Positions 1 to 59,460 of a DNA stretch of 64,000 bases are shown piece after piece. This DNA is from Mycobacteriales bacterium (GTDB lineage: Bacteria > Actinomycetota > Actinomycetes > JAFAQI01): the NCBI GenBank assembly GCA_035547515.1, contig DASZUS010000045.1, positions 171,291 to 235,290 on the forward strand, read 5' to 3'. Made by a program: the position numbers and the translations under genes. A model generated the notes under the pieces. That model was not told where the DNA came from. It saw only the letters and a program-made list of their open reading frames with translations, and did no database searches. The number at the start of each line of letters is the position of its first letter. Position 1 is the first letter of the stretch.

Positions 1-537
1 GTGCAGCTGTTCCTCAGCAAGTACTTCGGCTGGATCCCGCTGTTCGCCAACCCGAACAACCAGGCCAGCATCTTCAGCAAGTCGATCTTCGGCGCGGCGC
101 TCGTCCTTGCCATCATGGTGCTTCCGATCGTCGCCGCGGTCAGCCGCGAGGTGCTCCGGCAGGTGGACCCGGCGCAGAAGGAAGCCGCGCTTGCCCTCGG
201 CGCCACGCGCTGGGAGATGATCCGCACCTCCGTGCTGCCGCCGAGCCGCGCCGGGATCGTCAGTGCCGCGATGCTGGGCCTGGGCCGAGCGCTCGGCGAG
301 ACGATCGCAGTCGCGCTGGTCATCGGCGTCAGCTTCAAGATCAGCCCGCACATCTTGGTGCCCGGCGGCAACACGATCGCGGCGAACATCGCCAACTCCT
401 TCGGCGACGCCGACTCGCTGGGGAGGTCGGCACTGATCGCCAGCGGGCTCGTGCTGTTCGTTGTCACGCTCGCTGTGAACCTCGTCGCCCGGTACGTGAT
501 CCTGCGGTCCGGCACGGAGGAGCGCAGCGCCCTATGA
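1..537 (+). CDS. pstC: Phosphate ABC transporter permease PstC (5'-truncated by window start)
   Basis: C-terminal permease domain with EAA-like loop; followed by pstA and pstB in canonical order. Confidence 0.85.
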   Translation: MQLFLSKYFGWIPLFANPNNQASIFSKSIFGAALVLAIMVLPIVAAVSREVLRQVDPAQKEAALALGATRWEMIRTSVLPPSRAGIVSAAMLGLGRALGETIAVALVIGVSFKISPHILVPGGNTIAANIANSFGDADSLGRSALIASGLVLFVVTLAVNLVARYVILRSGTEERSAL

Positions 538-20241: not shown

Positions 20242-21647
20242 GCCACTGGGAAACCGCGATCCGCTTCGCCTCGCTGTTCGGCGCAGTGTGCTTCGTGGTC
20301 GGCCTGCACCTGATGAACTCCCCCGCCACCGCGCGGCGCGGCAACCAGGTCTCGGCGTTCGGGATGGTCGTCGCTGTTGCCGCGGTGCTGCTCAACGTCG
20401 GGCACGGCGACAACGGCGCCGTGATGGACGCGAGCCGTTGGCTGGTCCTGCTCGCGGGGGTGACGGTCGGCGGCGCCTGGGGCTGGTACGCCGCGCGGAC
20501 CCTGCAGATGACCTCGATGCCGCAGCTGGTGTCGATCTTCAATGCGGTCGGTGGAGGTGCGGCCGCGCTGATCGCGATCGCGGAGTACGACATCCACACC
20601 CACCCCTCCGGAGGCACCGCGACGGCAACTGTGCTCGACGTGGTGATCGGGGGTGTGACGTTCACCGGCTCGGTGCTCGCGGCGCTGAAGCTGCAAGGTC
20701 ACCTGTCCCAGCCGGTGTCGATCCCCGCTGCCCGGCCGGCATCCGCCGGCTTCGCGGCGCTCGCCGTAGCGGGAGCCGGCTGGGTGATCGCGGGCGCCGA
20801 CAGCAAGGGCGTGCTTCTCGGAGTGGTCATTGCGGCGATGGCCTTCGGCGTACTCATGGTGCTGCCGATCGGCGGCGCCGACATGCCGGTCGTCATCTCG
20901 CTGCTCAACGCCTTCACCGGGACGGCGGTCGCGATGGCCGGCTTCGTCCTGTCGAACGCGACCCTGACGATAGCCGGTGCGCTGGTCGGGGCCTCCGGCT
21001 CGATCCTGACCAAGCTGATGGCCGACGCCATGAACCGATCGGTCGTCAACATCATCGCGGGGGGCTTCGGGACCGGCGACGGCGCGGTGAGCGGCCCTGG
21101 CGGTGCGGGCGGCCCGGTCAGGTCGATCGCGGTCGACGACGCCGCGCTGCAGCTCGCCTACGCCAGCAAGGTGATCATCGTGCCGGGCTACGGCCTCGCT
21201 GCCGCACAGGCACAGCACGAGTGCCGCGAGCTGGCCGAGGTGCTCGAGTCACACGGTGTGGAGGTGAGCTACGCGATCCATCCCGTCGCGGGGCGGATGC
21301 CCGGCCACATGAACGTGCTGCTCGCCGAGGCCAACGTGCCCTACGACCAGCTCAAAGAGATGGAGGAGATCAACTCCGAGTTCGACCGCACCGACGTCGC
21401 CCTCGTGATCGGCGCCAACGACGTGACGAACCCCGCCGCCCGGCGGCCCGGCAACGCGGTGTCGGGGATGCCGATCCTCGACGTCGACCACGCGAAGTCG
21501 ATCATCGTGATCAAGCGATCGATGGCCTCCGGGTACGCCGGCATCGACAACGAGCTCTACACCGACCCGAAGACCTCGATGTTCTTCGCCGACGCCAAGC
21601 AGGGTCTCGCCTCGCTGGTGGCAGCCGCCAAAACCCTCGTCGCCTAG
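20238..21647 (+). CDS. pntB: NAD(P) transhydrogenase subunit beta
   Basis: GTG start overlapping the pntAB stop; membrane domain plus C-terminal NADP(H)-binding domain. Confidence 0.9.
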   Translation: MSHWETAIRFASLFGAVCFVVGLHLMNSPATARRGNQVSAFGMVVAVAAVLLNVGHGDNGAVMDASRWLVLLAGVTVGGAWGWYAARTLQMTSMPQLVSIFNAVGGGAAALIAIAEYDIHTHPSGGTATATVLDVVIGGVTFTGSVLAALKLQGHLSQPVSIPAARPASAGFAALAVAGAGWVIAGADSKGVLLGVVIAAMAFGVLMVLPIGGADMPVVISLLNAFTGTAVAMAGFVLSNATLTIAGALVGASGSILTKLMADAMNRSVVNIIAGGFGTGDGAVSGPGGAGGPVRSIAVDDAALQLAYASKVIIVPGYGLAAAQAQHECRELAEVLESHGVEVSYAIHPVAGRMPGHMNVLLAEANVPYDQLKEMEEINSEFDRTDVALVIGANDVTNPAARRPGNAVSGMPILDVDHAKSIIVIKRSMASGYAGIDNELYTDPKTSMFFADAKQGLASLVAAAKTLVA

Positions 21648-22843
21648 AACCGTACGGGCATCGACTCGTAGCCCGAGACGAAGTTCGCCGGACGGTACGG
21701 CGGCTCCGCTTCGTCCACCAGCTCGATGTCGGGCAGGCGGCGCAGCAACGTCTCGAAGAAGCACACGAGCTCGAGACGCGCCAGGTTGTTGCCCAGGCAG
21801 AAGTGCGTCCCGATGCCGAAGGCAACGTGCTCGTTCGGCGTACGGCTGATGTCGAACCGGAACGGGTCGGTGAACACCGAAGCATCGCGGTTCGCCGACG
21901 GATAGAGCAGCAGCAGCTTGTCACCTGCCGGCAGGTGCTGGCCACCCAGCTCGGTGTCGGCGACGACGGTCCGCGCCATGTTCTTGATCGGGCTGACCCA
22001 ACGCAGCATCTCCTCGACCGCGGTAGGGATCCGGCTCGGGTCCTCGATCAGCACCTGCTTGGCGGCAGGGTCGCGCAGCAGCTGGTAGAGGCCGCCGCTG
22101 ATCACGTGGCGAGTGGTCTCGTCGCCGCCGATCAGGATGAGCAGCGCGTCGTGGATCACGTCCTCCAGGTTGACGTCCTCCCCGTCGCTGCCGCCCTGCA
22201 CCAGCAGGCTGACCAGGTCGTCCCCCGGCGTACGGCGACGGTCTTCGATCGCCGCCATCGCGAACTCCCGGAAGCCGTTGTACGCCTCCGCGGCCGGAAT
22301 CATCGCCTCCGGATCACCGGTGCCGACAAGCGCCCGCAGCATGTCGTCGGACCACTTCAGCAACGATGCTCGATCGGATTCGGGGAAGCCGAGCATGTCC
22401 CCGATCACGTGCATCGGCAGCCACGCCGCGAGGTCGCGGACCGCATCACACTCACCGCGCTCGCAGACCTCGTCGATGATCCGGTTGCACCAGGCGTTGA
22501 TCGGGTCAACCGAGTCCGCGAGCCGCCGCGGCGTGAAGCCGCGGTTGACCATCTTGCGACGCCTTTTGTGCTCCGCGCCGTCCTGGTCGATCATCATCGG
22601 GATCGCGGCCTCGTCGGGCCGGATGCCCCCGCCGTTGCAGAACAGCTCAGGATGCAGCGACACGTACTTGACATCCGCGTGGCTGGCGACGCCCCACACC
22701 CGACCGTCCCAGTAGACCGGCGCGTTCTCGCGCAACCAGGTGAGCTCGTCGTGCGGGTTCCGGCCCCAGAACTCACCGCTGACGAGATCGATGGCCGGAT
22801 TTACCGGGTGATCGCCCTTGGCGACCGTCTGCCCGGAGGTCAT
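21644..22843 (-). CDS. Cytochrome P450, CYP142-like (sterol side-chain 26-monooxygenase family)
   Basis: Heme loop FGIGTHFCLGNNLARLEL, I-helix LILIGGDETTRH; close to my recollection of Mtb CYP142 (GGIRPD, IPMMID, RPANFVSG-ESMPV). Confidence 0.9.
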   Translation of the reverse strand: MTSGQTVAKGDHPVNPAIDLVSGEFWGRNPHDELTWLRENAPVYWDGRVWGVASHADVKYVSLHPELFCNGGGIRPDEAAIPMMIDQDGAEHKRRRKMVNRGFTPRRLADSVDPINAWCNRIIDEVCERGECDAVRDLAAWLPMHVIGDMLGFPESDRASLLKWSDDMLRALVGTGDPEAMIPAAEAYNGFREFAMAAIEDRRRTPGDDLVSLLVQGGSDGEDVNLEDVIHDALLILIGGDETTRHVISGGLYQLLRDPAAKQVLIEDPSRIPTAVEEMLRWVSPIKNMARTVVADTELGGQHLPAGDKLLLLYPSANRDASVFTDPFRFDISRTPNEHVAFGIGTHFCLGNNLARLELVCFFETLLRRLPDIELVDEAEPPYRPANFVSGYESMPVRF

Positions 22844-24351
22844 CAGGCGCCCTTCGCCAAGAAGCGACCGTCACAGCGATAGCCGGATTTCGGGTCGTCC
22901 ACGCGCTGGAATCCTCCGTTCTCGAGCTCCCACAGGATGTAACAGTGCGGCCCGCCCTTGGCGGCCGGGCTGACCGGGGCGATCAGCCCGTTGGCATCGA
23001 AGTCCTTGATCCGTCGCAGTGACGACATCAGGGTCTTGCGGTCGAGCGTTCCGTGGACGCTCTCGGCGGCCTGCTGGAAGAGCCGGTCGTCTGCCCAGGC
23101 GTACATCGCATAGAGGTTGATCGGCTGACCCGGATAGGTCCGTTCGAACCAGTCCTGGAAGGTCTTCACCTCGGGGATTCTCGTCGCCTCGTCCTTGTTG
23201 AAGAACAACGCGTAGGAGTTCCAGCCCAGGATGCCGTCGAGCTGCGAGGCCGGCCCGCTGTAGTCGGCCAGAAAGGCCTGGTCGTAGGCGATCGGGATGA
23301 TGTTGACCAAGCTCGACGGGCAGCCGGCCTGATGCTCGTTCTGGACCATCGTCGCGGCGTTCGCCGCGGTCTCGGTGAGCTCGAAGAAGACCTGGATGTG
23401 CTCCTGCTGGCACAGCTTGACGAAGTCGTTCTGGAAGTTGCTGTTCGTGGGCTGCTCGAGGATGCTGTCGACGAAGTGCCAGCCCTCGGCTTCCGCCGAG
23501 CGAACCTGGTTCTGCTGCTCTTCCACCGCCGAGGGGATGTCCTCGACGATGGTGCCGACGTGGTCGAGCTTCGAGCCCAGCTTCTGCTTGTAGTACTGGA
23601 ACATCCCGGTCCCGTAGCCGTTGCCCCCCGCGGTGACGTCGAAATGGTTGGCCGGGATGTACGCCGATGGATCGAGCGCGACATGGATGTCGGCGATGCC
23701 AGGGTTCGCCTTCACGATGGAGGCGCCGCAGCCGTCGTACAACGCGAACGTGCCCGACAGCGCGAAGGTCTTGCCGGCGAGGCTCTGAGTGGCGTTCTCG
23801 TCCTGCGTGCAGTTTGTCCCGTCGTCGGCGATGTCCACCTTGACCTGCCGCCCGCAGATCCCGCCAGAGGTGCTGTTGACGTAGTTGGCGAAGGCCTCGC
23901 CACCCTGTTCCGCCCCTTGGAAGAGTCCCGAGACCGGCCCGGTGAGCGTCACGACCTCGCCGAGTGCCAGCGTCGACGCGGTCAGGCCCACATCCGTGCC
24001 CCCCGAGCAGTCCGGGCCGGAGCCGGTGGTCGGAGCTGCGCTCGCCGCGGCGCTCCTGACGCTGCCCGGTCCGGGCGCGGCCGCCGACGGTACGCCGGAG
24101 CCGGAGCCGACCGGCGGGAGCACCGTGCCGCCGGACGTGACGGGGTTCGGTGCCGCCGCCGTCGGCTCAGCCGCTTGCGGAGCAGCCACTGCGCCGACCC
24201 GCTGGCTGAGTGCGGCGCGCTCGGCCTGGCTGCGCACGTCACCCGGCAACCGGGCGCCGCAAGCCGTCGACGCCAGGGCGAGGGCCGTGGCAGCGGCGAT
24301 CAGCAGACCGCCCGGCCGGCGACTCCCCGGAGTCACGACGTGCCGCGTCAT
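22843..24351 (-). CDS. ABC-type substrate-binding lipoprotein (type I periplasmic binding protein, Leu/Ile/Val-like) with long Ala/Pro-rich linker; no cognate permease or ATPase nearby
   Basis: ATG at 24351 preceded by GGAGG; lipobox LASTAC; about 100-aa low-complexity linker then a PBP1-type domain. Confidence 0.75.
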   Translation of the reverse strand: MTRHVVTPGSRRPGGLLIAAATALALASTACGARLPGDVRSQAERAALSQRVGAVAAPQAAEPTAAAPNPVTSGGTVLPPVGSGSGVPSAAAPGPGSVRSAAASAAPTTGSGPDCSGGTDVGLTASTLALGEVVTLTGPVSGLFQGAEQGGEAFANYVNSTSGGICGRQVKVDIADDGTNCTQDENATQSLAGKTFALSGTFALYDGCGASIVKANPGIADIHVALDPSAYIPANHFDVTAGGNGYGTGMFQYYKQKLGSKLDHVGTIVEDIPSAVEEQQNQVRSAEAEGWHFVDSILEQPTNSNFQNDFVKLCQQEHIQVFFELTETAANAATMVQNEHQAGCPSSLVNIIPIAYDQAFLADYSGPASQLDGILGWNSYALFFNKDEATRIPEVKTFQDWFERTYPGQPINLYAMYAWADDRLFQQAAESVHGTLDRKTLMSSLRRIKDFDANGLIAPVSPAAKGGPHCYILWELENGGFQRVDDPKSGYRCDGRFLAKGA

Positions 24352-24767
24352 GACGAGCTGCCTCCCGGGCCCGGAAAAGCCTGCTTGGCACCCTTGCCAC
24401 GGTGCGCACCGAGGCGCTCTTCGACGATCCGGTTGAGCGACGAGCCGCGCGGCCAGCCGATGTAGTGGGTCAGGAAAAGGACGACCTCTCGCAGCTCGTC
24501 GGCGGTCATCTCCTCGTTGGACAAGATCGCGTCGAGCTGGATCGGCAGGACCGACCACTCCGCTGATGCCGCGATGACCCCGAGCAGCAACATCCGCCGG
24601 TCCCGCATCGACAGGCCCTCGCGCGACCAGATCTCGCCGAACAGGTGGTCCACCGTGGTCGCGAAGAAGTCGCCCCGCACCTCCGGCACCTCCCCCCAGG
24701 CATAGACCTGCCCCATCAGCGCCTTGCCGCGCTCGTGGCGCTCGGCCTGCGCGTCCTGGTCGCTCAC
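24348..24767 (-). CDS. Carboxymuconolactone decarboxylase family protein
   Basis: 139 aa with AhpD-like fold signature; 4-nt overlap with the downstream gene. Confidence 0.75.
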   Translation of the reverse strand: MSDQDAQAERHERGKALMGQVYAWGEVPEVRGDFFATTVDHLFGEIWSREGLSMRDRRMLLLGVIAASAEWSVLPIQLDAILSNEEMTADELREVVLFLTHYIGWPRGSSLNRIVEERLGAHRGKGAKQAFPGPGGSSS

Positions 24768-25657
24768 GCGCCGTCCTCGTGGGGCACCCGCAGCGCCGAG
24801 GCAAGCGACGCCAGCCCGAGCTCGCCGAACGGCAGGTCCACCCCGAGCGCGGCGCCAAGGTCGAGCGCGTGCCGAAGGTCCTTCTCGCCGAGCTCGCGAG
24901 TGTGCTCGAAGATCGGCCGAAGCGGGTTATCGCTGCCGTACGGGTCCTGGCTCGGCGAGATCATGACGACTGCCGGGCCCCCGATCACGGCATCGCTGTG
25001 CCGGATTGCCGCCGCGAGCTTGAGTACGTCGACGCCCGCCGCCTGCGCCAGCCGCGCGACCTCTCCGGTGGCGGCATACCCGATGAACTGCAAGAGGTTC
25101 CGCGCGACCTTGGCACGGATCCCGGAGCCCGACGGCCCGAAGTAGAGCAGCAGCGACGCCCAGCGCTCGAACACCGGCTTCGCCTGCTCGTACGCGCCGC
25201 GGTCTCCGCCGACCATCGCTACGAGCTGGCCGTTCGCCGCGCCAGCCGGCCCGCCGGTGAGTGCGACGTCGAGCACCTCGATCCCGCGTGGTGCCGCAAG
25301 TGCCGCCAGCTCCGGCGCGGTGTCGACGTCGATCGTGGAGTGGACCGCGATCACCGTCCCGGGCTTCGCGCACTCGACCAGCTCACCGATGACGTCTCGT
25401 ACCTGCCCGTCCGTCAGCACCACGACGGAGATCACGCTCGCCGTCGACGCGAGATCCGCGAGGTCCGCGGCGCCTCGCGCGCCGGCCGCGGAGAGCCGAC
25501 CGACAGGGGTCGGATTGATGTCGTAGACGGTGAGCCCGCCCGGCCACTCCATGAGCCGCGCTGCGAGTGCCGCCCCCATGTTTCCCAGGCCCACCACGCC
25601 GACACCGACCGAGGCCGGCTCCGCCATCCCGGTCTCAGTCACGGGATCGGCGGCCAC
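24764..25657 (-). CDS. NAD(P)-dependent oxidoreductase (3-hydroxyisobutyrate dehydrogenase-like)
   Basis: Rossmann motif GVVGLGNMG; 6-phosphogluconate-DH-like NAD-binding domain; start may be 25627. Confidence 0.8.
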   Translation of the reverse strand: MAADPVTETGMAEPASVGVGVVGLGNMGAALAARLMEWPGGLTVYDINPTPVGRLSAAGARGAADLADLASTASVISVVVLTDGQVRDVIGELVECAKPGTVIAVHSTIDVDTAPELAALAAPRGIEVLDVALTGGPAGAANGQLVAMVGGDRGAYEQAKPVFERWASLLLYFGPSGSGIRAKVARNLLQFIGYAATGEVARLAQAAGVDVLKLAAAIRHSDAVIGGPAVVMISPSQDPYGSDNPLRPIFEHTRELGEKDLRHALDLGAALGVDLPFGELGLASLASALRVPHEDGA

Positions 25658-26193
25658 AGCGGAGCCGGCAGGTCCGCTCGTCGGTAGTGGCCCGGCAGCA
25701 GCTCGCCGCTGGCCGCGCGCTCCATGCGGCGGCGCATGCCGTCGGAGAGCACGCCGGCGCTGATCATCTCGAAGAACAACGATCCGGCGTTCATGTGGTC
25801 GAAGAAGTCACGCTGCCAGAGCCAGCCCCCCGGCGAGTACCCGAACCAGCTCGCGCCGAACCCGGCCACCTCGTAGGGCGAGCCGTCGGGACGCGTCACG
25901 TCCGCCACCTGGCGCCAGAACCCGATGATCATGCCCGCACGGTCGTCGATCAGCGTCGCCTGGTACGGGTAGCTCCACCCCTCGAGCCCCTCCATCTCCA
26001 GTCCTAGGGCGAGCCTGCGGATGTCGTCGCGGCCGACTGCCATGAACTCGTCGTCGGCTCCGCAGTTCCACCCGTACGTCGCATCGGGGGCGAAGAACTC
26101 CGCAAGGTCCGACCAGTCGCGCTTTGCCTCGCAGGCCTTGTTGGCGTCCAGCCAGCGCTGCCAGAACGCTTCCATCTCGTCGCGGTCGGGCAT
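25639..26193 (-). CDS. NTF2-like/SnoaL-like domain protein
   Basis: 184 aa; ATG at 26193 overlaps the ferredoxin stop (ATGA); fold assignment tentative. Confidence 0.5.
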   Translation of the reverse strand: MPDRDEMEAFWQRWLDANKACEAKRDWSDLAEFFAPDATYGWNCGADDEFMAVGRDDIRRLALGLEMEGLEGWSYPYQATLIDDRAGMIIGFWRQVADVTRPDGSPYEVAGFGASWFGYSPGGWLWQRDFFDHMNAGSLFFEMISAGVLSDGMRRRMERAASGELLPGHYRRADLPAPLWPPIP

Positions 26194-26390
26194 CAGGCAT
26201 CTCCCTCGATCGTGAGCGCTCTGGTCGGGCAGTACTTCACGGCAAGGCGCACGGCCGCTTCGTGCTCGTCGGGTACGGCGTCGGGAAGCACCTCGACCTG
26301 GTCGGCGCGACCGACCTTGAAGACCGCAGGCGCCTCGACCTCGCACATCGCGTGGCCCTGGCACAGCCCGTAGTCGACCCGCACCCTCAT
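26193..26390 (-). CDS. Ferredoxin (3Fe-4S type), P450 redox partner
   Basis: 65 aa; motif YGLCQGHAMCE...CP; ATGA overlap with the CYP51 stop, as in the mycobacterial cyp51-fdx pair. Confidence 0.8.
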   Translation of the reverse strand: MRVRVDYGLCQGHAMCEVEAPAVFKVGRADQVEVLPDAVPDEHEAAVRLAVKYCPTRALTIEGDA

Positions 26391-27742
26391 CGGCCCGACC
26401 TCGGCCGCACATGCACTTCGCACGGCTGCTCGAGCTGGACCACCATCTTCGAGTGGTCATTGCGGTAGGAGTCAGCGGGCTGCGCCATCTCGAACGCGTA
26501 GTCGCGAAGCAGCACCGAGAAGACCGCCTTGAGCTGCATCATCGCGAAGGCTGCGCCGACACATCGATGCCGGCCGCCCCCGAACGGGATCCAGGTCCAG
26601 GGGTTGACGTCGTCCTCGCGGCGCGGATCGAGGTAGCGGGAAGGGTCGAAGACGTCGGCATCGGGAAAGTCCGGGGTGAGGCGGTTGGAGATCGCCGGGC
26701 TCGCCGCGACAAGATCGCCCTTGCGGATCGCGTACCCGCCCACTTCCAGATCCTCTGTTGCCACGCGTAGCAAGAGGATCAGCGGCGGGTGCAGTCGCAG
26801 GGCTTCCTTGATCGCCGACTCCAACCGGGGAATCTCGCGCAACGCCTGGAAGCTGACCTCCGAGCCGTCGGCATACAGCGCGTCCAGCTCGGTGACGACG
26901 GCGGTCAGCTCCTCGGGATGGCGCAGCAGCTCGATCAGCGTCCACGCCGCCGTACCCGAGGTCGTGTGGTGCCCGGCGAACATCAGCGAGATGAACATGC
27001 CCGTGATCTCGTCGGCCGTGAACCGCGGCTGGTCCCCGACCGTCATCGACATCAAAACGTCGAGCAGGTCCTTGTCACCGACGACCTGTCCGGACGTCCG
27101 CGCCGCCATGATGTCCACCACGAGCTCGACGAGCGCCGCCCGCGCCGCATCGCGGCGGCGGAAGCTCTCGATCGGCGCGTAGGGGTCGACGTAGGCCAAC
27201 GCGTCGGTACCGCGCTCGAGATCGTGGTAGTAGCTCGCGAACCGGCTGTCGAGCTGGTCCCGGAACTTCTTGCCGATGAGGCAGGCCGACGAGGTGTAGA
27301 TCGTCAGCTCGGCGAAGAAGTCGAGCAGGTCGATCGCCTGCTCACCGGTCCACCCGGCGACCGCCCGCTCGACCTCAGCCGCGATCACCTCGGCGTGGCC
27401 CTTCATCTGCGGGCCGCGCAGCGACGAGTTCTTGAGCATCTCCGCGCGGCGCTCGGGCGGTGCGTCGAAGACGACGCCCTGGCCGAAGATCGGCGTCATG
27501 AAGGGGTACGCCGCGCCCTGGTCGAGCAGCTCGTCCGGGGCCCGGAAGTACCACTCGTTGACCTCCCGGCCGCAGACCAGCACGACGTCGCGGCCGGCCA
27601 GCTCGAAGACGCCGACGTCGCCACACTCGTCGTGGACCCTCCGCATCAGCCCGATCGGGTCACGGCGCAGCTCTTCGAGATGCCCGTGCTCGTGCTCGCC
27701 GCCCGACACCCGCGGCGGCGCGGGCCCTGCAGCCACCGTCAT
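26387..27742 (-). CDS. cyp51: Sterol 14-alpha demethylase CYP51
   Basis: 451 aa; near-colinear similarity to my recollection of Mtb CYP51 (PRVSGG-EHGHLEE, YPFMTPIFG, FGGGRHRCVGAAFA). Confidence 0.92.
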   Translation of the reverse strand: MTVAAGPAPPRVSGGEHEHGHLEELRRDPIGLMRRVHDECGDVGVFELAGRDVVLVCGREVNEWYFRAPDELLDQGAAYPFMTPIFGQGVVFDAPPERRAEMLKNSSLRGPQMKGHAEVIAAEVERAVAGWTGEQAIDLLDFFAELTIYTSSACLIGKKFRDQLDSRFASYYHDLERGTDALAYVDPYAPIESFRRRDAARAALVELVVDIMAARTSGQVVGDKDLLDVLMSMTVGDQPRFTADEITGMFISLMFAGHHTTSGTAAWTLIELLRHPEELTAVVTELDALYADGSEVSFQALREIPRLESAIKEALRLHPPLILLLRVATEDLEVGGYAIRKGDLVAASPAISNRLTPDFPDADVFDPSRYLDPRREDDVNPWTWIPFGGGRHRCVGAAFAMMQLKAVFSVLLRDYAFEMAQPADSYRNDHSKMVVQLEQPCEVHVRPRSGR

Positions 27743-27764
27743 GGCGACTCCTCGCTCTCGATGT

Positions 27765-28970
27765 TCATCGAAGCCTCACCGACGTCGGCAGATGCGCAAA
27801 GCCCCGGACGTTGACCGAGTGCACCCGACGGGCATTCGCCTCGTCGACGTCGTACGAGCCGACCCGTGACACGAGCTGCTCGAGCACGACCTTGGCTTCG
27901 AGCCGCGCCAGTGACGCGCCGAGGCAGAAATGCCGCCCGGACCCGAAACTGAGCAGCTCGGAGGTGTCGCGGTCGAGGTCGTAACTGTCCGGGTCCGCGA
28001 ACACACTGTCGTCCCGGTTCGCCGACCCGATGAGCAGAAGAACCCGCGACGCGGCGGGGATCACCACACCGCGCACCGCCACCTCGGTCGTCGTGGTGCG
28101 CGCCAGCATCTGCGTCGAGTTGTCGTAGCGGAGGGTTTCCTCGACCCATGCGGCGACTGCGGACCGGTTGCCGAGCGGCTTCGCCAGCTCGGCCGGGTTG
28201 CGCCACCCCCAGTACCAGCAGTGGCCGAGCAGCTTGGTGGTGGTCTCGTTGCCGGCGACAACCATGAGGAACAGAAACGCGCCGAGCTCGTCATCGGTGA
28301 GCCGCTCGCCGTCGAGCTCGACCTCGAGCAGCGCGGATGTGAGGTCGTCACGCGGATGCTTGCGACGCCCGGCGATCAGGTCGAGGTAGTAGACCGCGAG
28401 GTCGATCGAAGCGGCCGCCGCCGCCTGCGGCACATCGAACACACCGTCGTCCCGGTGCACCACGACGTCAGCCAGCCGTCGCAGCTCGGCGCGATCCGCT
28501 TCAGGCACGCCGAGCAGCTCCGAGACGACATCCATCGGCACCTTGCCAGCGACGTCGTCGATGAAGTCGAAGCTGCCCTGCTCGAGCGCAGGCGCGAGAT
28601 GGCCGTCGGTGATCGCCCGGACTCTCGGCTCCAGGTCCTGCACGCGGCGTGGCGTGAAGCCTTTCGAGACCAGCCGGCGCATCCGGCCGTGGCGCGGTTC
28701 GTCCATCGCGAGGAACGACATCACCCTCGCGGCCTGCGGCCCGGTCGCGGCGGGATCCAGCGACACCCCGTCGGCGCTGGAGTACCGCTGATCGTCGCGA
28801 AACGCGGCAACGACGTCGGCATGCCGCGACAGCGCGTAGAAGCCATGCTCGTCGTTGCGGTACACCGGCGCGTGAGCCCGCAGCGCGGCGTACGTCGGGT
28901 AGGGATCCTCGTGAATCGCGTAGTCGTACGGGTCGTACGCCGGCACCAGCTCGCCGAGGTCCGCGGTCAT
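27765..28970 (-). CDS. Cytochrome P450 (CYP123-like position downstream of TetR, upstream of cyp51)
   Basis: Heme loop FGSGRHFCLGASLARLE, I-helix VVAGNETT; gene order matches the mycobacterial cyp123-cyp51 operon. Confidence 0.88.
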   Translation of the reverse strand: MTADLGELVPAYDPYDYAIHEDPYPTYAALRAHAPVYRNDEHGFYALSRHADVVAAFRDDQRYSSADGVSLDPAATGPQAARVMSFLAMDEPRHGRMRRLVSKGFTPRRVQDLEPRVRAITDGHLAPALEQGSFDFIDDVAGKVPMDVVSELLGVPEADRAELRRLADVVVHRDDGVFDVPQAAAAASIDLAVYYLDLIAGRRKHPRDDLTSALLEVELDGERLTDDELGAFLFLMVVAGNETTTKLLGHCWYWGWRNPAELAKPLGNRSAVAAWVEETLRYDNSTQMLARTTTTEVAVRGVVIPAASRVLLLIGSANRDDSVFADPDSYDLDRDTSELLSFGSGRHFCLGASLARLEAKVVLEQLVSRVGSYDVDEANARRVHSVNVRGFAHLPTSVRLR

Positions 28971-29548
28971 CGACGCTCCGTCATCAGTGCCGTGGCATCC
29001 GCCATCAGCGTCGGCAGTGCGTCGTACGTCGTGTAACCCATGCCGGCCGAAAGCAACGCCCCGACGAAGGTGAAGGTGAGCACCAGTGCCACCCGCGGGT
29101 CAGCGTCCGAGCCGAGCGCATCCGCGATCCGCCTGCCGATCGCGGCACCGATGCGGTCCCGGATCACCTGCACGTCGGCGTCGTGGGCGAGCAGCGCGGT
29201 CGTGATGCCCGCCGCTAGCTCGGGTTCGTCAGCGACCAGCAACGCAACGGCCTGCATCGCGTCCTGGACCCGCGCGGCGCCGCGCTGTCGGCGGCTCGGC
29301 TTCGGGAGGTCGAGGGCGTCCAGGCGGCGCCAGAACACCTCGCTGAGCAAGTGCTCCTTGCTTGCGAAGTACGTGTACGCAGTCGCCGGCGACACCCCCG
29401 CGCGGCGTGCCACCGCGCGCACCGTGAGCCCGTCGTACCCGGTCTCGGCGACTTCATGGACCGCCGCGTCGACCAGGGCAGCGACCGTGTCAGCCGCGCG
29501 ACCGGCGAGCGCACGCCGAGGTACCTCGGCAGCGGCCGAACTGGACAT
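28967..29548 (-). CDS. TetR family transcriptional regulator
   Basis: HTH VRAVARRAGVSPATAYTYFASKEHLL; 4-nt overlap with the P450 start. Confidence 0.85.
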   Translation of the reverse strand: MSSSAAAEVPRRALAGRAADTVAALVDAAVHEVAETGYDGLTVRAVARRAGVSPATAYTYFASKEHLLSEVFWRRLDALDLPKPSRRQRGAARVQDAMQAVALLVADEPELAAGITTALLAHDADVQVIRDRIGAAIGRRIADALGSDADPRVALVLTFTFVGALLSAGMGYTTYDALPTLMADATALMTERR

Positions 29549-55884: not shown

Positions 55885-56075
55885 GCGCGTCGCATTCACA
55901 CCGCCGAACCCGTCCGGTGAATGCGTTGCCCTTCAATCCCAGATGGACGGGGCCGGGGACCCACAGAGTTCCTACAAGCAGAGTTCTTACCCAGCTTTCG
56001 GAGTCCTACTCCTTGGGGTGAAGCCAGCGCTTGCGCTGGCCGGGTGATCCACTCATCCGAACCCGACAGCTAACT
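55885..56075 (+). promoter_or_regulatory. Candidate cyclic-di-AMP (ydaO/kimA-type) riboswitch in the 5' leader of an NlpC/P60 hydrolase gene
   Basis: About 190-nt structured leader with pseudo-symmetric halves (CCGAACCCG twice; GGTGAATGC / GGGTGAAGCC / GGGTGATCC; GGGGACCCA; 3' CCGAACCCGACAGCTAACTCGG). Classic genomic context for ydaO in actinobacteria. Confidence 0.5.
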
Positions 56076-56099
56076 CGGCAGGCGTCCGGAGTGGACTTC

Positions 56100-56822
56100 A
56101 TGCTGCCTGCGCGCCCTCACACGCTGCTTCGATCCGCATTCCTCACCCTGCTCACCGCCGGGTTGGTCGCCTCCGCGACCGGGACTGCGCTCGCCGAGAC
56201 ATCGCCGAGCCCGACCCCACTTCCGGCCGGATCCGTTCCGGCCGGCTCGGCACCGACCGACCCGGGTACCAGCGGTACGACGCCGGCCACCCCGGCCGAC
56301 CCGACGACCCCGGCCAGCCCGAGCGGGCCGTCGGTGCCGACCGCGAGCCAGCCGCTCATCACCTTCACGCTGCCCCAGGCGAGTGCGCACCTGCGCTACG
56401 AGCACGAGCGGCTGCGCCGGCGCGAGTGGCGCCAGCGTGCCGTGCGCGCCGTGCTGGCGGAGGCCCGCAAGCAAGCCGGCAAGCCGTACGTGTACGGCGC
56501 CGACGGGCCGCGCTCGTTCGACTGCTCTGGACTGGTTCGCTACGTCTTCGGGCACGCGATCGGCAAGTGGCTGCCGCACAACGCCGCCGCGCAGTACTCG
56601 GTGATCAAGCACATCAAGCGCCGCGACCTCGAGCCCGGCGACCTGGTATTCCAGGCCGCCGGCGGCTACCCGTTCCACGTCGGGATCTACGCCGGTCACG
56701 ACAAGTGGTGGCACGCGCCGCACACGGGGGCCGTCGTGCACAAGCAGACGATCTACTCCGGCCACCTGGTCTACGGCCGGGTGCTCACCACCAGGCTCGC
56801 GACGCTGCGCACCCGCCGCTAG
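56100..56822 (+). CDS. Secreted NlpC/P60 family peptidoglycan hydrolase with Pro/Thr-rich linker
   Basis: GGAG RBS then ATG 56100; signal peptide; C-terminal NlpC/P60 core (YVYGADGPRSFDCSGLVRYVF...H). Confidence 0.85.
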   Translation: MLPARPHTLLRSAFLTLLTAGLVASATGTALAETSPSPTPLPAGSVPAGSAPTDPGTSGTTPATPADPTTPASPSGPSVPTASQPLITFTLPQASAHLRYEHERLRRREWRQRAVRAVLAEARKQAGKPYVYGADGPRSFDCSGLVRYVFGHAIGKWLPHNAAAQYSVIKHIKRRDLEPGDLVFQAAGGYPFHVGIYAGHDKWWHAPHTGAVVHKQTIYSGHLVYGRVLTTRLATLRTRR

Positions 56823-57724
56823 GCGGCCGCGGCGGCGCTGACCTCGAGCAGGCGGCGTACGGCGGACACGACGTAGGCCGGGTCCTGCGTCACGTCGAAC
56901 CACGTCACGACCGCGAGCCGCCATCCTTCCGAGGTGATCGCCGCCCAGCGCCGGCGGTCGCCGCGAAACGGGTCGCGGGAGTTGCGGTAGGCATAACCGT
57001 CGCACTCGAGCACCGCGCGGACCTCCGGCCACGCGAAGTCGACGAAGCCGACCCACCCGGTCGCGCGGCTCTTCAGCGAGAGCTGAGTGACCGGCACCGG
57101 CAACCCGCTGCGCCACAGCAGGACGCGAGTGAGCGACTCGAGGACGCAGCCGCTCCACGGGTCGACCAGGCCGGCCACGGTCTGCGCCCGCAGGCGGCCG
57201 GGGCCCCTCGCCGCCCGAGCGACCGCGGCGAAGTCGGCGTCGGTGAAGTGGTGCTGCCGGATGAAGGCGTCGACCACCGCGACCGCTTGATCGGCCGGCG
57301 AGTGCCGCGCGATGTCGAGACAGGTCCGCAGAGGAGTGGTGACCAGTGCTCCGTCGACGAGCTCGACGTCGGTACGCGCGAGGTCGGCACGGTGCAGGCG
57401 TACCCCCGGCAGGGCCTCGGCGAGACCGCCGCGGGCTCGCGGGACGGTCAGGTGGATCTGGCTCAGCGGAGCGGGAAGCTCGACGCCCCACCACGCGGCG
57501 GCTGACTCGAAGCTGATCGCGGCGTACCAGTCCTTGGCGATCCGCCGCGGGTCGGGCAGCGGCTCGCCGATCGCATAGACGCCGCGCGCGATCCTGGCGA
57601 CCGACCCGCGGCTGACCAGGTCGCCGAGCGCCCGTGGGCTGATGCCTGTTGCCAGCACCTGCGAGCGGGTCAGCACCCCGCGGTTGTCGACGGCGATCGG
57701 GGCAAGAAGGGTGAGCGGATCCAC
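56819..57724 (-). CDS. DUF559 (Vsr-like endonuclease fold) protein with AbiEi-like N-terminal domain
   Basis: GTG start at 57724; N-terminal RGVLTRSQVLATGISPRALGDLVSRGSVARIARGVYAIG; C-terminal DUF559-like region. Confidence 0.65.
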   Translation of the reverse strand: MDPLTLLAPIAVDNRGVLTRSQVLATGISPRALGDLVSRGSVARIARGVYAIGEPLPDPRRIAKDWYAAISFESAAAWWGVELPAPLSQIHLTVPRARGGLAEALPGVRLHRADLARTDVELVDGALVTTPLRTCLDIARHSPADQAVAVVDAFIRQHHFTDADFAAVARAARGPGRLRAQTVAGLVDPWSGCVLESLTRVLLWRSGLPVPVTQLSLKSRATGWVGFVDFAWPEVRAVLECDGYAYRNSRDPFRGDRRRWAAITSEGWRLAVVTWFDVTQDPAYVVSAVRRLLEVSAAAAA

Positions 57725-57763
57725 CCCGCCACCGTCGAGCCTCCGGCAGCTGCTGCCCACCCC

Positions 57764-57799
57764 GAGATCGGTACCTGTGGAAACTCCACAGGTACCGAT
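57764..57799. terminator. Perfect 15/16-bp palindromic hairpin (GATCGGTACCTGTGG-AAACT-CCACAGGTACCGATC) downstream of the ThiS-like gene
   Basis: Read directly; lies between the ThiS-like stop (57804) and the DUF559 start (57724); no U-tract. Confidence 0.5.
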
Positions 57800-57803
57800 C
57801 GCG

Positions 57804-58079
57804 CTAGCCGCCCGCGACCGCCGGGATGATCGAGATCGACGCGCCGTCCGGCGTCGGCGTCTGCAGGCCCTCGGCGAAGCGCACGTCGTCGTCGTTGACG
57901 TAGATGTTGACGAACCGGCGCAGCTTGCCGTCATCGTCGAGCACCCGAGCCCGGATGCCGGTGTGGTCGGCCTCGAGCGCGTCGAGCACCTCGGCGAGGG
58001 TCGCGCCCTCGGCCGTGACCTCAGCAGCACCCCCGGTCAGCGGACGCAGGATCGTGGGGACGCGGACTGTGACGCTCAT
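57804..58079 (-). CDS. ThiS/MoaD-family sulfur carrier protein (CysO/MetO-like) with C-terminal Gly-Gly
   Basis: 91 aa, beta-grasp-like, ends ...AVAGG; ATGA overlap with the upstream ThrC-like gene. Confidence 0.8.
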   Translation of the reverse strand: MSVTVRVPTILRPLTGGAAEVTAEGATLAEVLDALEADHTGIRARVLDDDGKLRRFVNIYVNDDDVRFAEGLQTPTPDGASISIIPAVAGG

Positions 58080-59326
58080 TCGTGCAATCCTGCCGCACGG
58101 AACGCATCGAGCGTCGCCGGGATCGTCGCGGTCGGCCGCGCCACCGGCTCCACCGCGTCCAGCGTCTTCAGCCCGTCCCCGGTGTTGAGGATCACGGTCT
58201 CGGCTTCGGGATCGAGCTGGCCGGACGCGAGCAGCTTGCGCAGCGTCGCGACGGTCACGCCGCCCGCCGTCTCACCGAAGATCCCGGTGGTGCGCGCGAG
58301 CAGCTGGATCCCCTCCACCACCTCGGCGTCCGTCACGTCCTCGACGGCTCCGCCGGTACGACGTACGACGTCGAGCGCGTAGGGCCCGTCCGCCGGGTTG
58401 CCGATCGCGAGCGACTTGGCGATGCCGCTGGGACGGACCGGCTGGACCACGTCGTGCCCGGCACGGAACGCCGCTGACACTGGCGAGCAGCCGGTCGACT
58501 GCGCGCCGAAGACCCGGTACGGCGAGGCGTCGGCCAGCCCGAGCTTGCCGAGCTCACGCCACGCCTTGTCGACCTTCGTCAGCAGGGAGCCGGACGCGAT
58601 CGGGATCACGACCTGCTCCGGCAGCCGCCAGCCGAGCTGCTCGGCGATCTCGTAGCCGACGGTCTTGGAGCCCTCCGCGTAGAACGGCCGGACGTTGACG
58701 TTGACGAAGGCCCAGGGCAGCTCGCCGGCGACCTCGGCGCAGAGCCGGTTGACGTCGTCGTAGGAACCTTCGACCGCAACCAGCGTGCCCCCGTAGACCG
58801 CGGTCGTGACGACCTTGCCGGCCTCGAGGTCGTGCGGGATGAACACCACCGACTTCATGCCGCATGCGGCGGCCGCCGCTGCGACCGCGTTCGCGAGGTT
58901 GCCGGTCGAGGCGCACGAGAGCACGTCGAAGCCGAGGGCGCGAGCCGCATTGGCGGCCACTCCGACCACCCGGTCCTTGAACGAGTGCGTCGGGTTGCCG
59001 CTGTCGTCTTTGACCCACAGCGACTTCATGCCGAGCTCGGCGGCGAGGTTGTCGGCGCGCACCAGGCGAGTCATGCCGACCTGCAGGTCGACGACCGGTG
59101 CGGCCGGCAGCAGCCCGGCGTAGCGCCACATGGTCTGGGGCCCAGCGGCGATCGACTCACGGGTGACCAGCCGCTGCAGGTCCTCGTCGTAGGCGATCTC
59201 CAGGGGCCCGAAACACATCTCGCAGACGTGCAACGGACCGATCTCGTACTGCGTGCCGCACTCGCGACAGACCAGGTGAGAGGCAGAACCGAACGCGGTG
59301 CGCTCGAGCACCGAGGTGTCAGACAT
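58076..59326 (-). CDS. Threonine synthase-like PLP enzyme with N-terminal Cys4 zinc ribbon (MetM-like candidate)
   Basis: Fold-type II PLP motif HSFKDR; N-terminal CRECG...CEMC; 416 aa; RBS GGAAGG; lies downstream of a SAM-I riboswitch. Confidence 0.85.
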   Translation of the reverse strand: MSDTSVLERTAFGSASHLVCRECGTQYEIGPLHVCEMCFGPLEIAYDEDLQRLVTRESIAAGPQTMWRYAGLLPAAPVVDLQVGMTRLVRADNLAAELGMKSLWVKDDSGNPTHSFKDRVVGVAANAARALGFDVLSCASTGNLANAVAAAAAACGMKSVVFIPHDLEAGKVVTTAVYGGTLVAVEGSYDDVNRLCAEVAGELPWAFVNVNVRPFYAEGSKTVGYEIAEQLGWRLPEQVVIPIASGSLLTKVDKAWRELGKLGLADASPYRVFGAQSTGCSPVSAAFRAGHDVVQPVRPSGIAKSLAIGNPADGPYALDVVRRTGGAVEDVTDAEVVEGIQLLARTTGIFGETAGGVTVATLRKLLASGQLDPEAETVILNTGDGLKTLDAVEPVARPTATIPATLDAFRAAGLHE

Positions 59327-59334
59327 CAAAGAGG

Positions 59335-59460
59335 CCTTCCGTCCTCATCTTCCCCCCGGACGGTTGCCCGGAGGCCGGATGTGGCACCTGCCCGAGACGG
59401 GTGGTTGCCGGGGCTTCAGCGGGCCGGATCCCTCTGCCCCTCTTGATGAGTGCACGACTC
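59335..59460 (-). promoter_or_regulatory. SAM-I (S-box) riboswitch in the 5' leader of the ThrC-like/ThiS-like operon
   Basis: Minus-strand RNA reads CTCATCAAGAGGGGCAGAGGGATCCGGCCCGCTGAAGCCCCGGCAACC...GGTGCCACATCCGG...GGAAGATGAGGA. This is near-identical to the S-box core CTTATCAAGAGAGGCAGAGGGACTGGCCCGATGAAGCCCGGCAACC...GGTGCTAAATCC...AGATGAGAG. Confidence 0.85.

Follow-up and report, generated by a model that had tools for sequence, protein, structure and literature searches.

Two adjacent genes in the metagenome-assembled genome (MAG) of an uncultured Mycobacteriales bacterium very probably form a SAM-repressed metM-metO operon, which would serve homocysteine synthesis via a protein thiocarboxylate. 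They were studied within the window, i.e. the whole 64-kb stretch of DNA that was analysed. The larger gene codes for a predicted O-phosphohomoserine-dependent homocysteine synthase, listed in GenBank as “threonine synthase” (HVW80880.1); the smaller one codes for a candidate sulfur-carrier protein, listed as “ubiquitin-like small modifier protein 1” (HVW80879.1). Most likely, the pair is a mis-annotated but ordinary example of MetM/MetO, a pathway known from Streptomyces since 2024. The same reading had been put forward in a first-pass annotation that invoked the Streptomyces pathway, which does exist according to the citing literature on S. albulus. The reading is supported by the identity of the enzyme to proteins of Streptomyces loci, by the presence of all eight MetM signature residues and by the conserved linkage of riboswitch and carrier.

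Organization of the locus

The two genes lie between a SAM-I riboswitch and a terminator-like hairpin (Table 1), and their reading frames overlap by 4 nt in an ATGA motif at 58076-58079. Both proteins are as the first-pass annotation had described them: a PLP enzyme of the threonine-synthase fold whose N-terminus bears a Cys4 motif (Pfam PALP, TIGR00260 and the motif itself), and a translationally coupled ThiS/MoaD protein with a terminal Gly-Gly (open reading frames and Pfam ThiS). An alternative start of the enzyme, TTG at 59329, would give 417 aa instead of the 416 aa counted from ATG, which is the length deposited as HVW80880.1.

Table 1 Features of the metM-like/metO-like locus, in window coordinates.
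Feature	Position	Strand	Basis
SAM-I riboswitch aptamer (P1 CUCAUC/GAUGAG, P2, short P3, P4)	59342..59452	-	Rfam RF00162
Ribosome-binding region: SD-like GGAAGG 59335-59340, 8-nt spacer, ATG 59324-59326	59324..59340	-	Sequence reading
metM-like gene, 416-aa fold-type-II PLP enzyme, Cys4 zinc-ribbon motif	58076..59326	-	Family scans
metO-like gene, 91-aa ThiS/MoaD beta-grasp sulfur-carrier protein, Gly-Gly end	57804..58079	-	Pfam ThiS
Terminator-like hairpin directly 3' of the metO stop codon	57763..57803	-	Inverted repeat and folding

The hairpin has 19-nt arms (57763-57781 and 57785-57803) around a 3-nt loop and is devoid of a U tract. Its minimum free energy of -37.7 kcal/mol (z = -6.9) was equalled by none of 200 shuffled sequences. 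The surroundings of the locus are conserved core genome (otsA, otsB, groEL, DUF3263), not a biosynthetic gene cluster.

The MetM-like enzyme departs from canonical threonine synthases

The enzyme matches Pfam PALP at 1.1e-65, and ThrC sequences from the PDB match its residues 63-412 at 5.8e-49. It passes the NCBIfam threonine synthase equivalog TIGR00260 with 261.2 bits (cut-off 167.1) and falls below the cut-off of its closest ThrC model, NF006050 (272.6 against 303); among the best 25 of 38 matching NCBIfam families, it fails every ThrC equivalog except TIGR00260. Fold assignments are given here as sequence matches to solved structures: an AlphaFold2 model built from a 12-sequence alignment was unusable (mean pLDDT 41.9, pTM 0.31).

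Ahead of the catalytic domain, the motif C20-x2-C23 ... C35-x2-C38 is invariant in 12 of 12 relatives and retained in nearly all full-length representatives that cover the N-terminus. Residue K117, within an SFKDR motif, aligns with K61 of Thermus ThrC, the Schiff-base lysine. The enzyme is 65-72% identical to its counterparts at equivalent loci of Streptomyces, Frankia, Kribbella and Actinomadura; the three Streptomyces loci among them (L070, L074 and L076; 65-68%) come from species other than S. albulus. Identity drops to 30-37% with five crystallised ThrCs (PDB 1uim, 6cgq, 2zsj, 2d1f and 1e5x), the M. tuberculosis enzyme, from the same order, standing at 34%.

Aligning 81 members of the MetM-like clade with the five ThrCs revealed 40 residue positions invariant in both groups and 37 positions at which all or nearly all clade members differ from ThrC. 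Four of the latter fall in the conserved substrate-phosphate site, which in Thermus ThrC reportedly comprises T88, N154, S155, R160 and N188 (Omi 2003; Murakawa 2011). Residues T88, S155, R160 and N188 are kept in all five ThrC structures; the enzyme has L144, N211, Y216 and S245 in their place, and each of these four replacements is shared by at least 80 of the 81 clade members. An arginine of the clade sits at 213, with Y216 occupying the place of ThrC Arg160.

Like canonical ThrC, the enzyme belongs to fold type II of the PLP enzymes, has its lysine in an SFKDR motif and presumably uses O-phosphohomoserine as substrate. Unlike ThrC, it carries an extra N-terminal Cys4 domain of ~60 residues, and its gene is associated with a SAM riboswitch and with that of a sulfur carrier. 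It groups away from bona fide ThrCs, a comparison that the first-pass annotation had called for, both by identity and by the residue signature given below. It is very unlikely to be a true threonine synthase, whether a second ThrC or one of archaeal type with a zinc ribbon, next to a small protein in an unrelated role. The TIGR00260 match and the public name would suit such an enzyme, and so would the PLP lysine and the large part of the fold that it has in common with ThrC; the low identity, the replaced phosphate-site residues and the missed NF006050 cut-off speak against it, and a conserved SAM riboswitch with a coupled sulfur carrier would have no rationale in threonine synthesis. As for the public name, MetM is often wrongly labelled threonine synthase, according to the GapMind authors (2026 preprint).

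The carrier is a close relative of CysO

The carrier has a Pfam ThiS match at 4.2e-17, and its last residues, ...PAVAGG, directly precede the stop codon. Its best solved relative is CysO of M. tuberculosis (3dwg_C), with a full-length match at 1.6e-28 and 60% identity; for CysO, both the thiocarboxylate role and the beta-grasp fold are established. The Amycolatopsis carrier in PDB 4n6e, an entry in which it is bound to an enzyme of 2-thiosugar biosynthesis, follows at 54%, and carriers of the Streptomyces loci are 76-77% identical. Archaeal SAMP1 structures match far more weakly (3.5e-5), and the protein passes the NCBIfam SAMP1 model with 64.4 bits (cut-off 60). The Gly-Gly terminus and the beta-grasp family, both essential to the first-pass reading, are thereby confirmed (the latter by Pfam ThiS and the CysO structure match). 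As the protein already ends in Gly-Gly, MetO would need no C-terminal trimming before activation.

These two solved relatives raise the question of a CysM/CysO-like or secondary-metabolite sulfur-insertion pair, delivering sulfur to cysteine or another thio-compound rather than to homocysteine. We hold this to be very improbable: the best NCBIfam matches of the enzyme are all ThrC models, with no CysK/CysM model among the best 25 of 38, neither mec nor cysM is adjacent to the pair, the neighbourhood is conserved core genome, and the regulatory signal is SAM, not cysteine.

No ThiF/MoeZ, rhodanese or JAB/JAMM protein was found in the 64-kb window (~50 open reading frames scanned with Pfam, the remaining ones read by eye), so the first-pass annotation was right that it holds no MoeZ/ThiF-like E1; neither were Mec, thrB or further methionine genes found there. 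A single MoeZR is shared by several carriers in mycobacteria, and in M. tuberculosis the gene of this E1 lies far from cysO; for these reasons, a window lacking an E1 is unremarkable.

Riboswitch, enzyme and carrier are linked across Actinomycetota

Of 80 genome loci searched with nhmmer, 79 have a homologous aptamer upstream of the metM-like gene; Rfam confirmed it in 10 of the 11 loci checked, and RF00162 scores 77.8-81.6 bits at the three Streptomyces loci. The linkage of riboswitch and metM is nearly universal across the sampled Actinomycetota. The carrier gene follows immediately in 65 of the 80 genome loci and in 61 of the 74 metagenome loci with enough sequence, and in 22 relatives it overlaps the enzyme gene by 4 nt. 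The remaining genome loci, about 15 of 80, have riboswitch and enzyme but no adjacent carrier.

Loci of this last kind would be expected if MetM used free sulfide or had another main activity, e.g. threonine deamination, and the small protein were a ubiquitin-like modifier, as its SAMP1 match might suggest. A cyanobacterial homologue, ~52% identical to MetM, has indeed been reported as a moonlighting deaminase, which in vitro acted weakly both as a threonine synthase and as a threonine deaminase (PMC12172450). Still, we give this scenario very little credence. The ATGA coupling and the 4-nt overlap in relatives argue for co-production of stoichiometric partners, the carrier is far nearer to CysO than to archaeal SAMP1, and the Streptomyces work, as relayed by the GapMind 2026 preprint, reported the MetO thiocarboxylate as the sulfur donor.

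The SAM-I riboswitch and its expression platform

The aptamer matches the full RF00162 model (positions 1-108, minus strand) with 80.7 bits and E = 2.1e-17, the gathering score being 44.4, and in isolation it folds into the consensus four-helix structure. The first-pass annotation had correctly placed a SAM-I riboswitch ahead of the pair, but had it begin at 59460 instead of 59452.

Between aptamer and start codon there is no intrinsic terminator, nor any room for one, since the ribosome-binding region begins 2 nt after the aptamer. This close packing is common to relatives too. Thermodynamic folding gave no clear sign that SAM occludes the ribosome-binding site. Comparing the accessibility of this site with P1 enforced and unconstrained, in the window and 145 leaders, gave mixed changes in a nested model that cannot represent pseudoknots; it carries no information, since such a model, once P1 is enforced, rules out pairing of the tail with the aptamer interior. 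Within the window lineage, a search by eye for an extended P1 or an upstream anti-SD returned just short, non-conserved matches.

The spacer and start codon (CCUCU-U-UGAUG) have a complement in the 5' P1 strand together with J1/2 (CAUCAAGAGG). By nested folding, the resulting alternative helix exceeds the aptamer fold in stability by ~5 kcal/mol, with the AUG buried in it. The same mimicry of P1 by the start codon occurs in one relative (L001) and partly in another (L083), but not in other relatives that are 82% identical. With such a helix, SAM binding could free the start codon and switch the operon on, making the riboswitch no conventional OFF switch; on this folding model, we regard that outcome as hardly probable at all. 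Were it true, a ThrC-like enzyme would be induced by SAM, echoing the SAM-activated threonine synthase of plants at the O-phosphohomoserine branch point, and the homocysteine-synthase assignment would come into question for the window lineage.

Proposed pathway and related systems

For this probable SAM-repressed metM-metO operon, we propose the following pathway, by analogy with the Streptomyces system and with CysO/MoeZ biochemistry. A MoeZ-type E1 encoded elsewhere would adenylate the C-terminal glycine of MetO and convert it to the thiocarboxylate. MetM would bind O-phospho-L-homoserine on its PLP (at Lys117) and the phosphate would be eliminated. Sulfur from the MetO thiocarboxylate would then be added at C-gamma: a gamma-replacement, where threonine synthase adds water at C-beta. 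The homocysteine released would be methylated to methionine. With plentiful SAM, the aptamer would close P1 and translation of the operon would presumably be shut off.

The carrier shares its PAVAGG end with CysO of M. tuberculosis, and the CysM/CysO/Mec/MoeZ system resembles the one predicted for the window in that a protein thiocarboxylate supplies the sulfur for a PLP enzyme whose substrate is an O-phospho amino acid. CysM, however, performs a CysK/CysM-type beta-replacement on O-phosphoserine, whereas the window enzyme is of ThrC type, with a predicted gamma-replacement on O-phosphohomoserine; moreover, unlike the cysteine pathway, the window pair has no adjacent mec and stands under a SAM riboswitch.

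Krishnamoorthy and Begley are said to have described, in 2011, how HcyS/MetY/HcyD/HcyF of Wolinella succinogenes makes homocysteine from a protein thiocarboxylate carrier, as is predicted for the window. The Wolinella enzyme is reportedly a fold-type-I O-acetylhomoserine sulfhydrylase with a clustered E1 gene, and the C-terminal extension of its carrier is said to be removed by a clustered metalloprotease. The window locus differs in having no fold-type-I enzyme, no carrier extension, and neither a clustered metalloprotease nor a clustered E1.

The closest known system is that of S. albulus. There, the ThrC homologue MetM works with the sulfur-carrier protein MetO to make homocysteine from O-phosphohomoserine (Hasebe, Adachi, Maruyama and Hamano; Hasebe et al. 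2024, AEM 90:e01247-24, as cited in the GapMind 2026 preprint and PMC12172450). Its metM also has an upstream SAM riboswitch, according to PMC12172450, so that the order of elements as given in these citing sources, SAM riboswitch, ThrC-homologous PLP enzyme and small sulfur-carrier gene, is that of the window.

Differences from the Streptomyces loci are small. In these and in Actinacidiphila, the carriers end in GGC and the genes are 23-45 nt apart; the window carrier ends in GG-stop and its gene overlaps that of the enzyme. The GGC ends are consistent with the Mec-dependent carrier maturation described in the GapMind 2026 preprint. At the Streptomyces loci, a P3 insertion complements the ribosome-binding site; the window aptamer, with its short P3, has no such insertion.

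A residue signature for annotation

Chemistry, carrier, riboswitch and broad distribution of MetM/MetO were already reported in 2024, as far as the citing literature conveys that work, and the window pair opens no new biological question. Its chief value is practical. NCBIfam release 20.0 returned no MetM or MetO model for the two proteins, which score above the threonine synthase and SAMP1 cut-offs. Because of these NCBIfam and GenBank assignments, metabolic reconstructions of the MAG and of many soil relatives will miss the homocysteine route.

The comparative residue data supply a usable discriminator of MetM from ThrC. In window numbering, it consists of L144, R213, Y216, S220, S245, K304, D313 and T353, where ThrC has T, N, R, Q, N, T, S and P, respectively. 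The window enzyme and the three Streptomyces-locus proteins score 8/8, canonical ThrC 0/8. The core of the signature, L144, R213 and Y216, is absent from canonical ThrC and retained by most of the full-length library representatives, even at identities as low as ~38-40%.

Organization of the operon

The SAM-I riboswitch that the first-pass annotation had placed ahead of the gene pair is a full-length Rfam match and, folded by itself, gives the consensus P1-P4 structure. The aptamer lies directly against the ribosome-binding site of the first of two translationally coupled genes, and the unit ends in a terminator-like hairpin. Neither a sigma-70-like promoter nor a U-tract terminator was found in the leader of the metM-like gene, and the gap between aptamer and start codon is too short to hold a terminator.

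The product of the metM-like ORF is 416 aa long from the ATG and 417 aa from a TTG one codon upstream; the 416-aa form is the one in GenBank (HVW80880.1; Mycobacteriales MAG, 248,846-bp contig). The enzyme matches Pfam PALP (1.1e-65) and TIGR00260 thrC, and its Cys4 motif (C20-x2-C23 ... C35-x2-C38) shows no variation among close relatives; the threonine-synthase-fold PLP enzyme with an N-terminal Cys4 is thus present as first described. The coupling to a Gly-Gly-ended ThiS-type ORF was also read correctly: the TGA of the first ORF and the ATG of the second overlap.

Features of the window, and related loci (L handles, other genomes or metagenomes) exemplifying the P3-insertion pairing
Feature	Position	Strand	Remarks
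SAM-I aptamer	59342-59452	minus	Rfam, 80.7 bits (gathering score 44.4)
5' P1 strand + J1/2	59436-59447	minus	CAUCAAGAGG
Shine-Dalgarno-like GGAAGG	59335-59340	minus	starts 2 nt past 3' strand of P1
Spacer/start codon	59324-59336	minus	CCUCU(U)UGAUG
metM-like ATG	59326		downstream of GGAAGG
metO-like ORF	57804-58079	minus	ThiS family, 91 aa; C-terminus PAVAGG then stop
Hairpin	57763-57803		19-nt arms; directly after metO-like ORF; folding z-score -6.9
AbiEi_4-like ORF	56822-57760	minus	adjoins metO hairpin
NlpC/P60 hydrolase gene	56031-56822	plus	
c-di-AMP riboswitch	55917-56098	plus	RF00379, 67 bits
Cytochrome P450 gene group	21647-29099	minus	
P3-insertion example	L076:5800-5970		Streptomyces
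P3-insertion example	L009:5825-5985		
P3-insertion example	L055:1493-1635		
P3-insertion example	L030:1980-2146		
P3-insertion example	L006:5811-5960		

Comparison of the enzyme with threonine synthases

The closest solved structures are threonine synthases of Thermus (5.8e-49), B. subtilis (2.3e-48) and Aquifex (2.6e-46), that of M. tuberculosis matching more weakly (1.4e-38). All align from about residue 63 on, so that the Cys4 domain is an N-terminal addition. Identity to five crystallised ThrCs (PDB 1uim, 6cgq, 2zsj, 2d1f, 1e5x) is 30-37%, against 65-92% for the best 80 of 597 relatives found by scanning one genome per species. These 80 loci, the ones analysed, include Streptomyces, Actinacidiphila, Frankia, Kribbella, Actinomadura, Streptosporangium, Nocardioidaceae and Nanopelagicales.

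When 81 clade members are aligned with the five ThrC structures, both groups share the PLP lysine K117 (Thermus K61) along with 39 further residue positions, and 37 positions are fixed or nearly so in the clade yet different in ThrC. The clade-specific changes are located in classic ThrC motifs: STGNT(S/A) becomes STGNLA, N-SVNPxR(L/I)EGQKT becomes NVNVRPFYAEGSKT, PVGNAGN becomes PIASGSL and ATAIRIGNPASW becomes AKSLAIGNPADG. The changed residues, T88, S155, R160 and N188 in Thermus numbering, reportedly hold the substrate or product phosphate in ThrC and steer water addition (work of Omi et al. 2003 and Murakawa et al. 2011). The remodelled phosphate pocket would fit a reaction specificity moved away from threonine formation.

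A search of 1.84 billion cluster representatives found the L144/R213/Y216 core kept in most full-length zinc-ribbon proteins down to ~38-40% identity; it is missing from canonical ThrC. All eight signature residues (L144, R213, Y216, S220, S245, K304, D313, T353) occur in both the window enzyme and the Streptomyces proteins. By identity and signature alike, the enzyme does not group with bona fide threonine synthases, in line with the role first proposed for it.

The sulfur carrier

The metO-like protein aligns along its whole length with CysO of M. tuberculosis (3dwg_C; 1.6e-28, 60% identity), matches the Amycolatopsis carrier in 4n6e and is 76-77% identical to the carrier of the Streptomyces loci; this homology establishes the beta-grasp fold and Gly-Gly terminus initially attributed to it. 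The window MetO ends in GG then stop, like 56 of 65 carriers at genome loci; GGC ends occur at three loci of Streptomyces, two of Kribbella and one of Actinacidiphila. The GGC end agrees with the maturation step that the GapMind preprint lists as "[MetO]-L-cysteine hydrolase Mec"; the window MetO needs no such C-terminal trimming.

MetO homologues overall take three C-terminal forms. Most have GG then stop, the form of the window protein; a second form is longer by a single residue (GGC in L064, L070, L074 and L076, from Streptomyces and Actinacidiphila, and GGS or GGQ elsewhere); the third, in some metagenome lineages (L122-L156 and others), has tails of 4-25 residues past GG, many ending GQMA. 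The latter two forms imply proteolytic maturation.

Conservation of the arrangement and assignment

Iterated nhmmer finds an aptamer homologue close ahead of the enzyme gene at 79 of the 80 best genome loci, and Rfam agrees for 10 of 11 representatives, among them three Streptomyces, Frankia torreyi, Kribbella and Actinomadura. A MetO homologue lies directly downstream in 65 of the 80 (with a 4-nt overlap in 22) and is next in 61 of the 74 metagenome loci whose sequence reaches far enough. The window neighbours (otsA, divergent upstream, otsB, DUF3263, groEL) are conserved core genome with no functional link.

About 15 of the 80 loci, from Frankiaceae, Nakamurella and some Nocardioidaceae, have the SAM riboswitch and metM-like gene with no adjoining carrier gene (among them L003, L006, L007, L026, L032, L036, L041, L053, L057, L061, L071 and L079); in one or two the contig ends within the locus. 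At these loci the enzyme must draw its sulfur from a carrier whose gene lies elsewhere or from some other source.

The Streptomyces pathway named in the first pass is the right one: Hasebe et al. 2024 describe, for Streptomyces albulus, the ThrC homologue MetM and the sulfur carrier MetO, and PMC12172450 reports a SAM riboswitch upstream of S. albulus metM and widespread homologues. B. subtilis ThrC and MetM share 33% identity according to a 2026 preprint; for the window enzyme we measured 32.5%. The system is already published, and the window pair is most probably a new, mis-annotated member from an uncultured Mycobacteriales lineage. Sequence comparison supports this membership through orthology to Streptomyces loci other than S. 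albulus with the same three-part layout. In those loci the carrier ends in GGC and the genes lie 23-45 nt apart, whereas the window MetO stops after GG and its gene overlaps the preceding one; P3 of the window aptamer is 14 nt long, and a longer P3 insertion is present in most relatives.

In NCBIfam 20.0 the enzyme scores above the cut-off of TIGR00260 (thrC) and the carrier above that of NF041918 (SAMP1), with no MetM or MetO model among the matches listed; hence GenBank calls them "threonine synthase" and "ubiquitin-like small modifier protein 1", names that are probably wrong. MetM "is often misannotated" as threonine synthase, in the words of the GapMind preprint. Three other readings were weighed: that the enzyme is a genuine ThrC, that the pair delivers sulfur in the manner of CysM/CysO or for a secondary metabolite, and that a deaminase stands beside a SAMP-like modifier. 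The signature residues and family scans, together with the conserved linkage to riboswitch and carrier and the core-genome setting, speak against all of them; even jointly we consider them improbable.

Proposed mechanism and control

A MoeZ-type E1 encoded elsewhere would thiocarboxylate the MetO C-terminus; in mycobacteria a single MoeZR serves CysO and MoaD proteins. ThiF/MoeZ, rhodanese, JAB, thrB, hom and other methionine genes do not occur among the ~50 window ORFs scanned, nor do the same E1, JAB and methionine gene types in the 12.5-16.2 kb stretch read by eye, so the E1 partner is missing from the window, as first noted. MetM would then exchange the phosphate of O-phosphohomoserine for thiocarboxylate sulfur in a PLP-dependent gamma-replacement, yielding homocysteine.

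Translation would be repressed upon SAM binding. In nested folding, the 5' P1 strand and J1/2 pair with the spacer and start codon, burying the AUG in a closing helix that is favoured by ~5 kcal/mol over the aptamer fold with canonical P1. Taken literally, this fold would predict an ON switch, a reading that we find scarcely credible because the complementarity recurs in L001 and partly in L083 and in no other close relatives, because every known SAM-I switch represses, and because the biology favours repression.

Long P3 elements occur in 111 metM leaders, and 56 of these leaders have at least 7 nt of perfect complementarity between the distal 3' arm of the P3 insertion and the stretch from Shine-Dalgarno to start codon, at a constant site 9-13 nt before the end of P3. 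The pairs fall into 18 types, such as GGCCUCGC:GCGAGGCC, GGCCUCGU:ACGAGGCC, GUCUCCGC:GCGGAGAC and UCCGCAUG:CAUGCGGA. The pattern resembles a covarying pseudoknot by which the aptamer interior would sequester the ribosome-binding site; the complementarity does not occur in the window's own aptamer.

Other features of the window

The NlpC/P60 cell-wall hydrolase gene has a c-di-AMP riboswitch in its leader, a known association, and L001 has the same riboswitch at the corresponding place. The ORF beside the metO hairpin combines an N-terminal domain like that of AbiEi_4 antitoxins with a weak C-terminal match to REase_MTES_1575, and no AbiEii partner was seen; lying outside the neighbour families common to other loci, it may be a lineage-specific insertion. 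Three cytochrome P450 genes, an ORF with a periplasmic-binding-protein domain, an NAD-binding dehydrogenase and a TetR regulator may form a small oxidative catabolic or tailoring cluster, unrelated to metM-metO.
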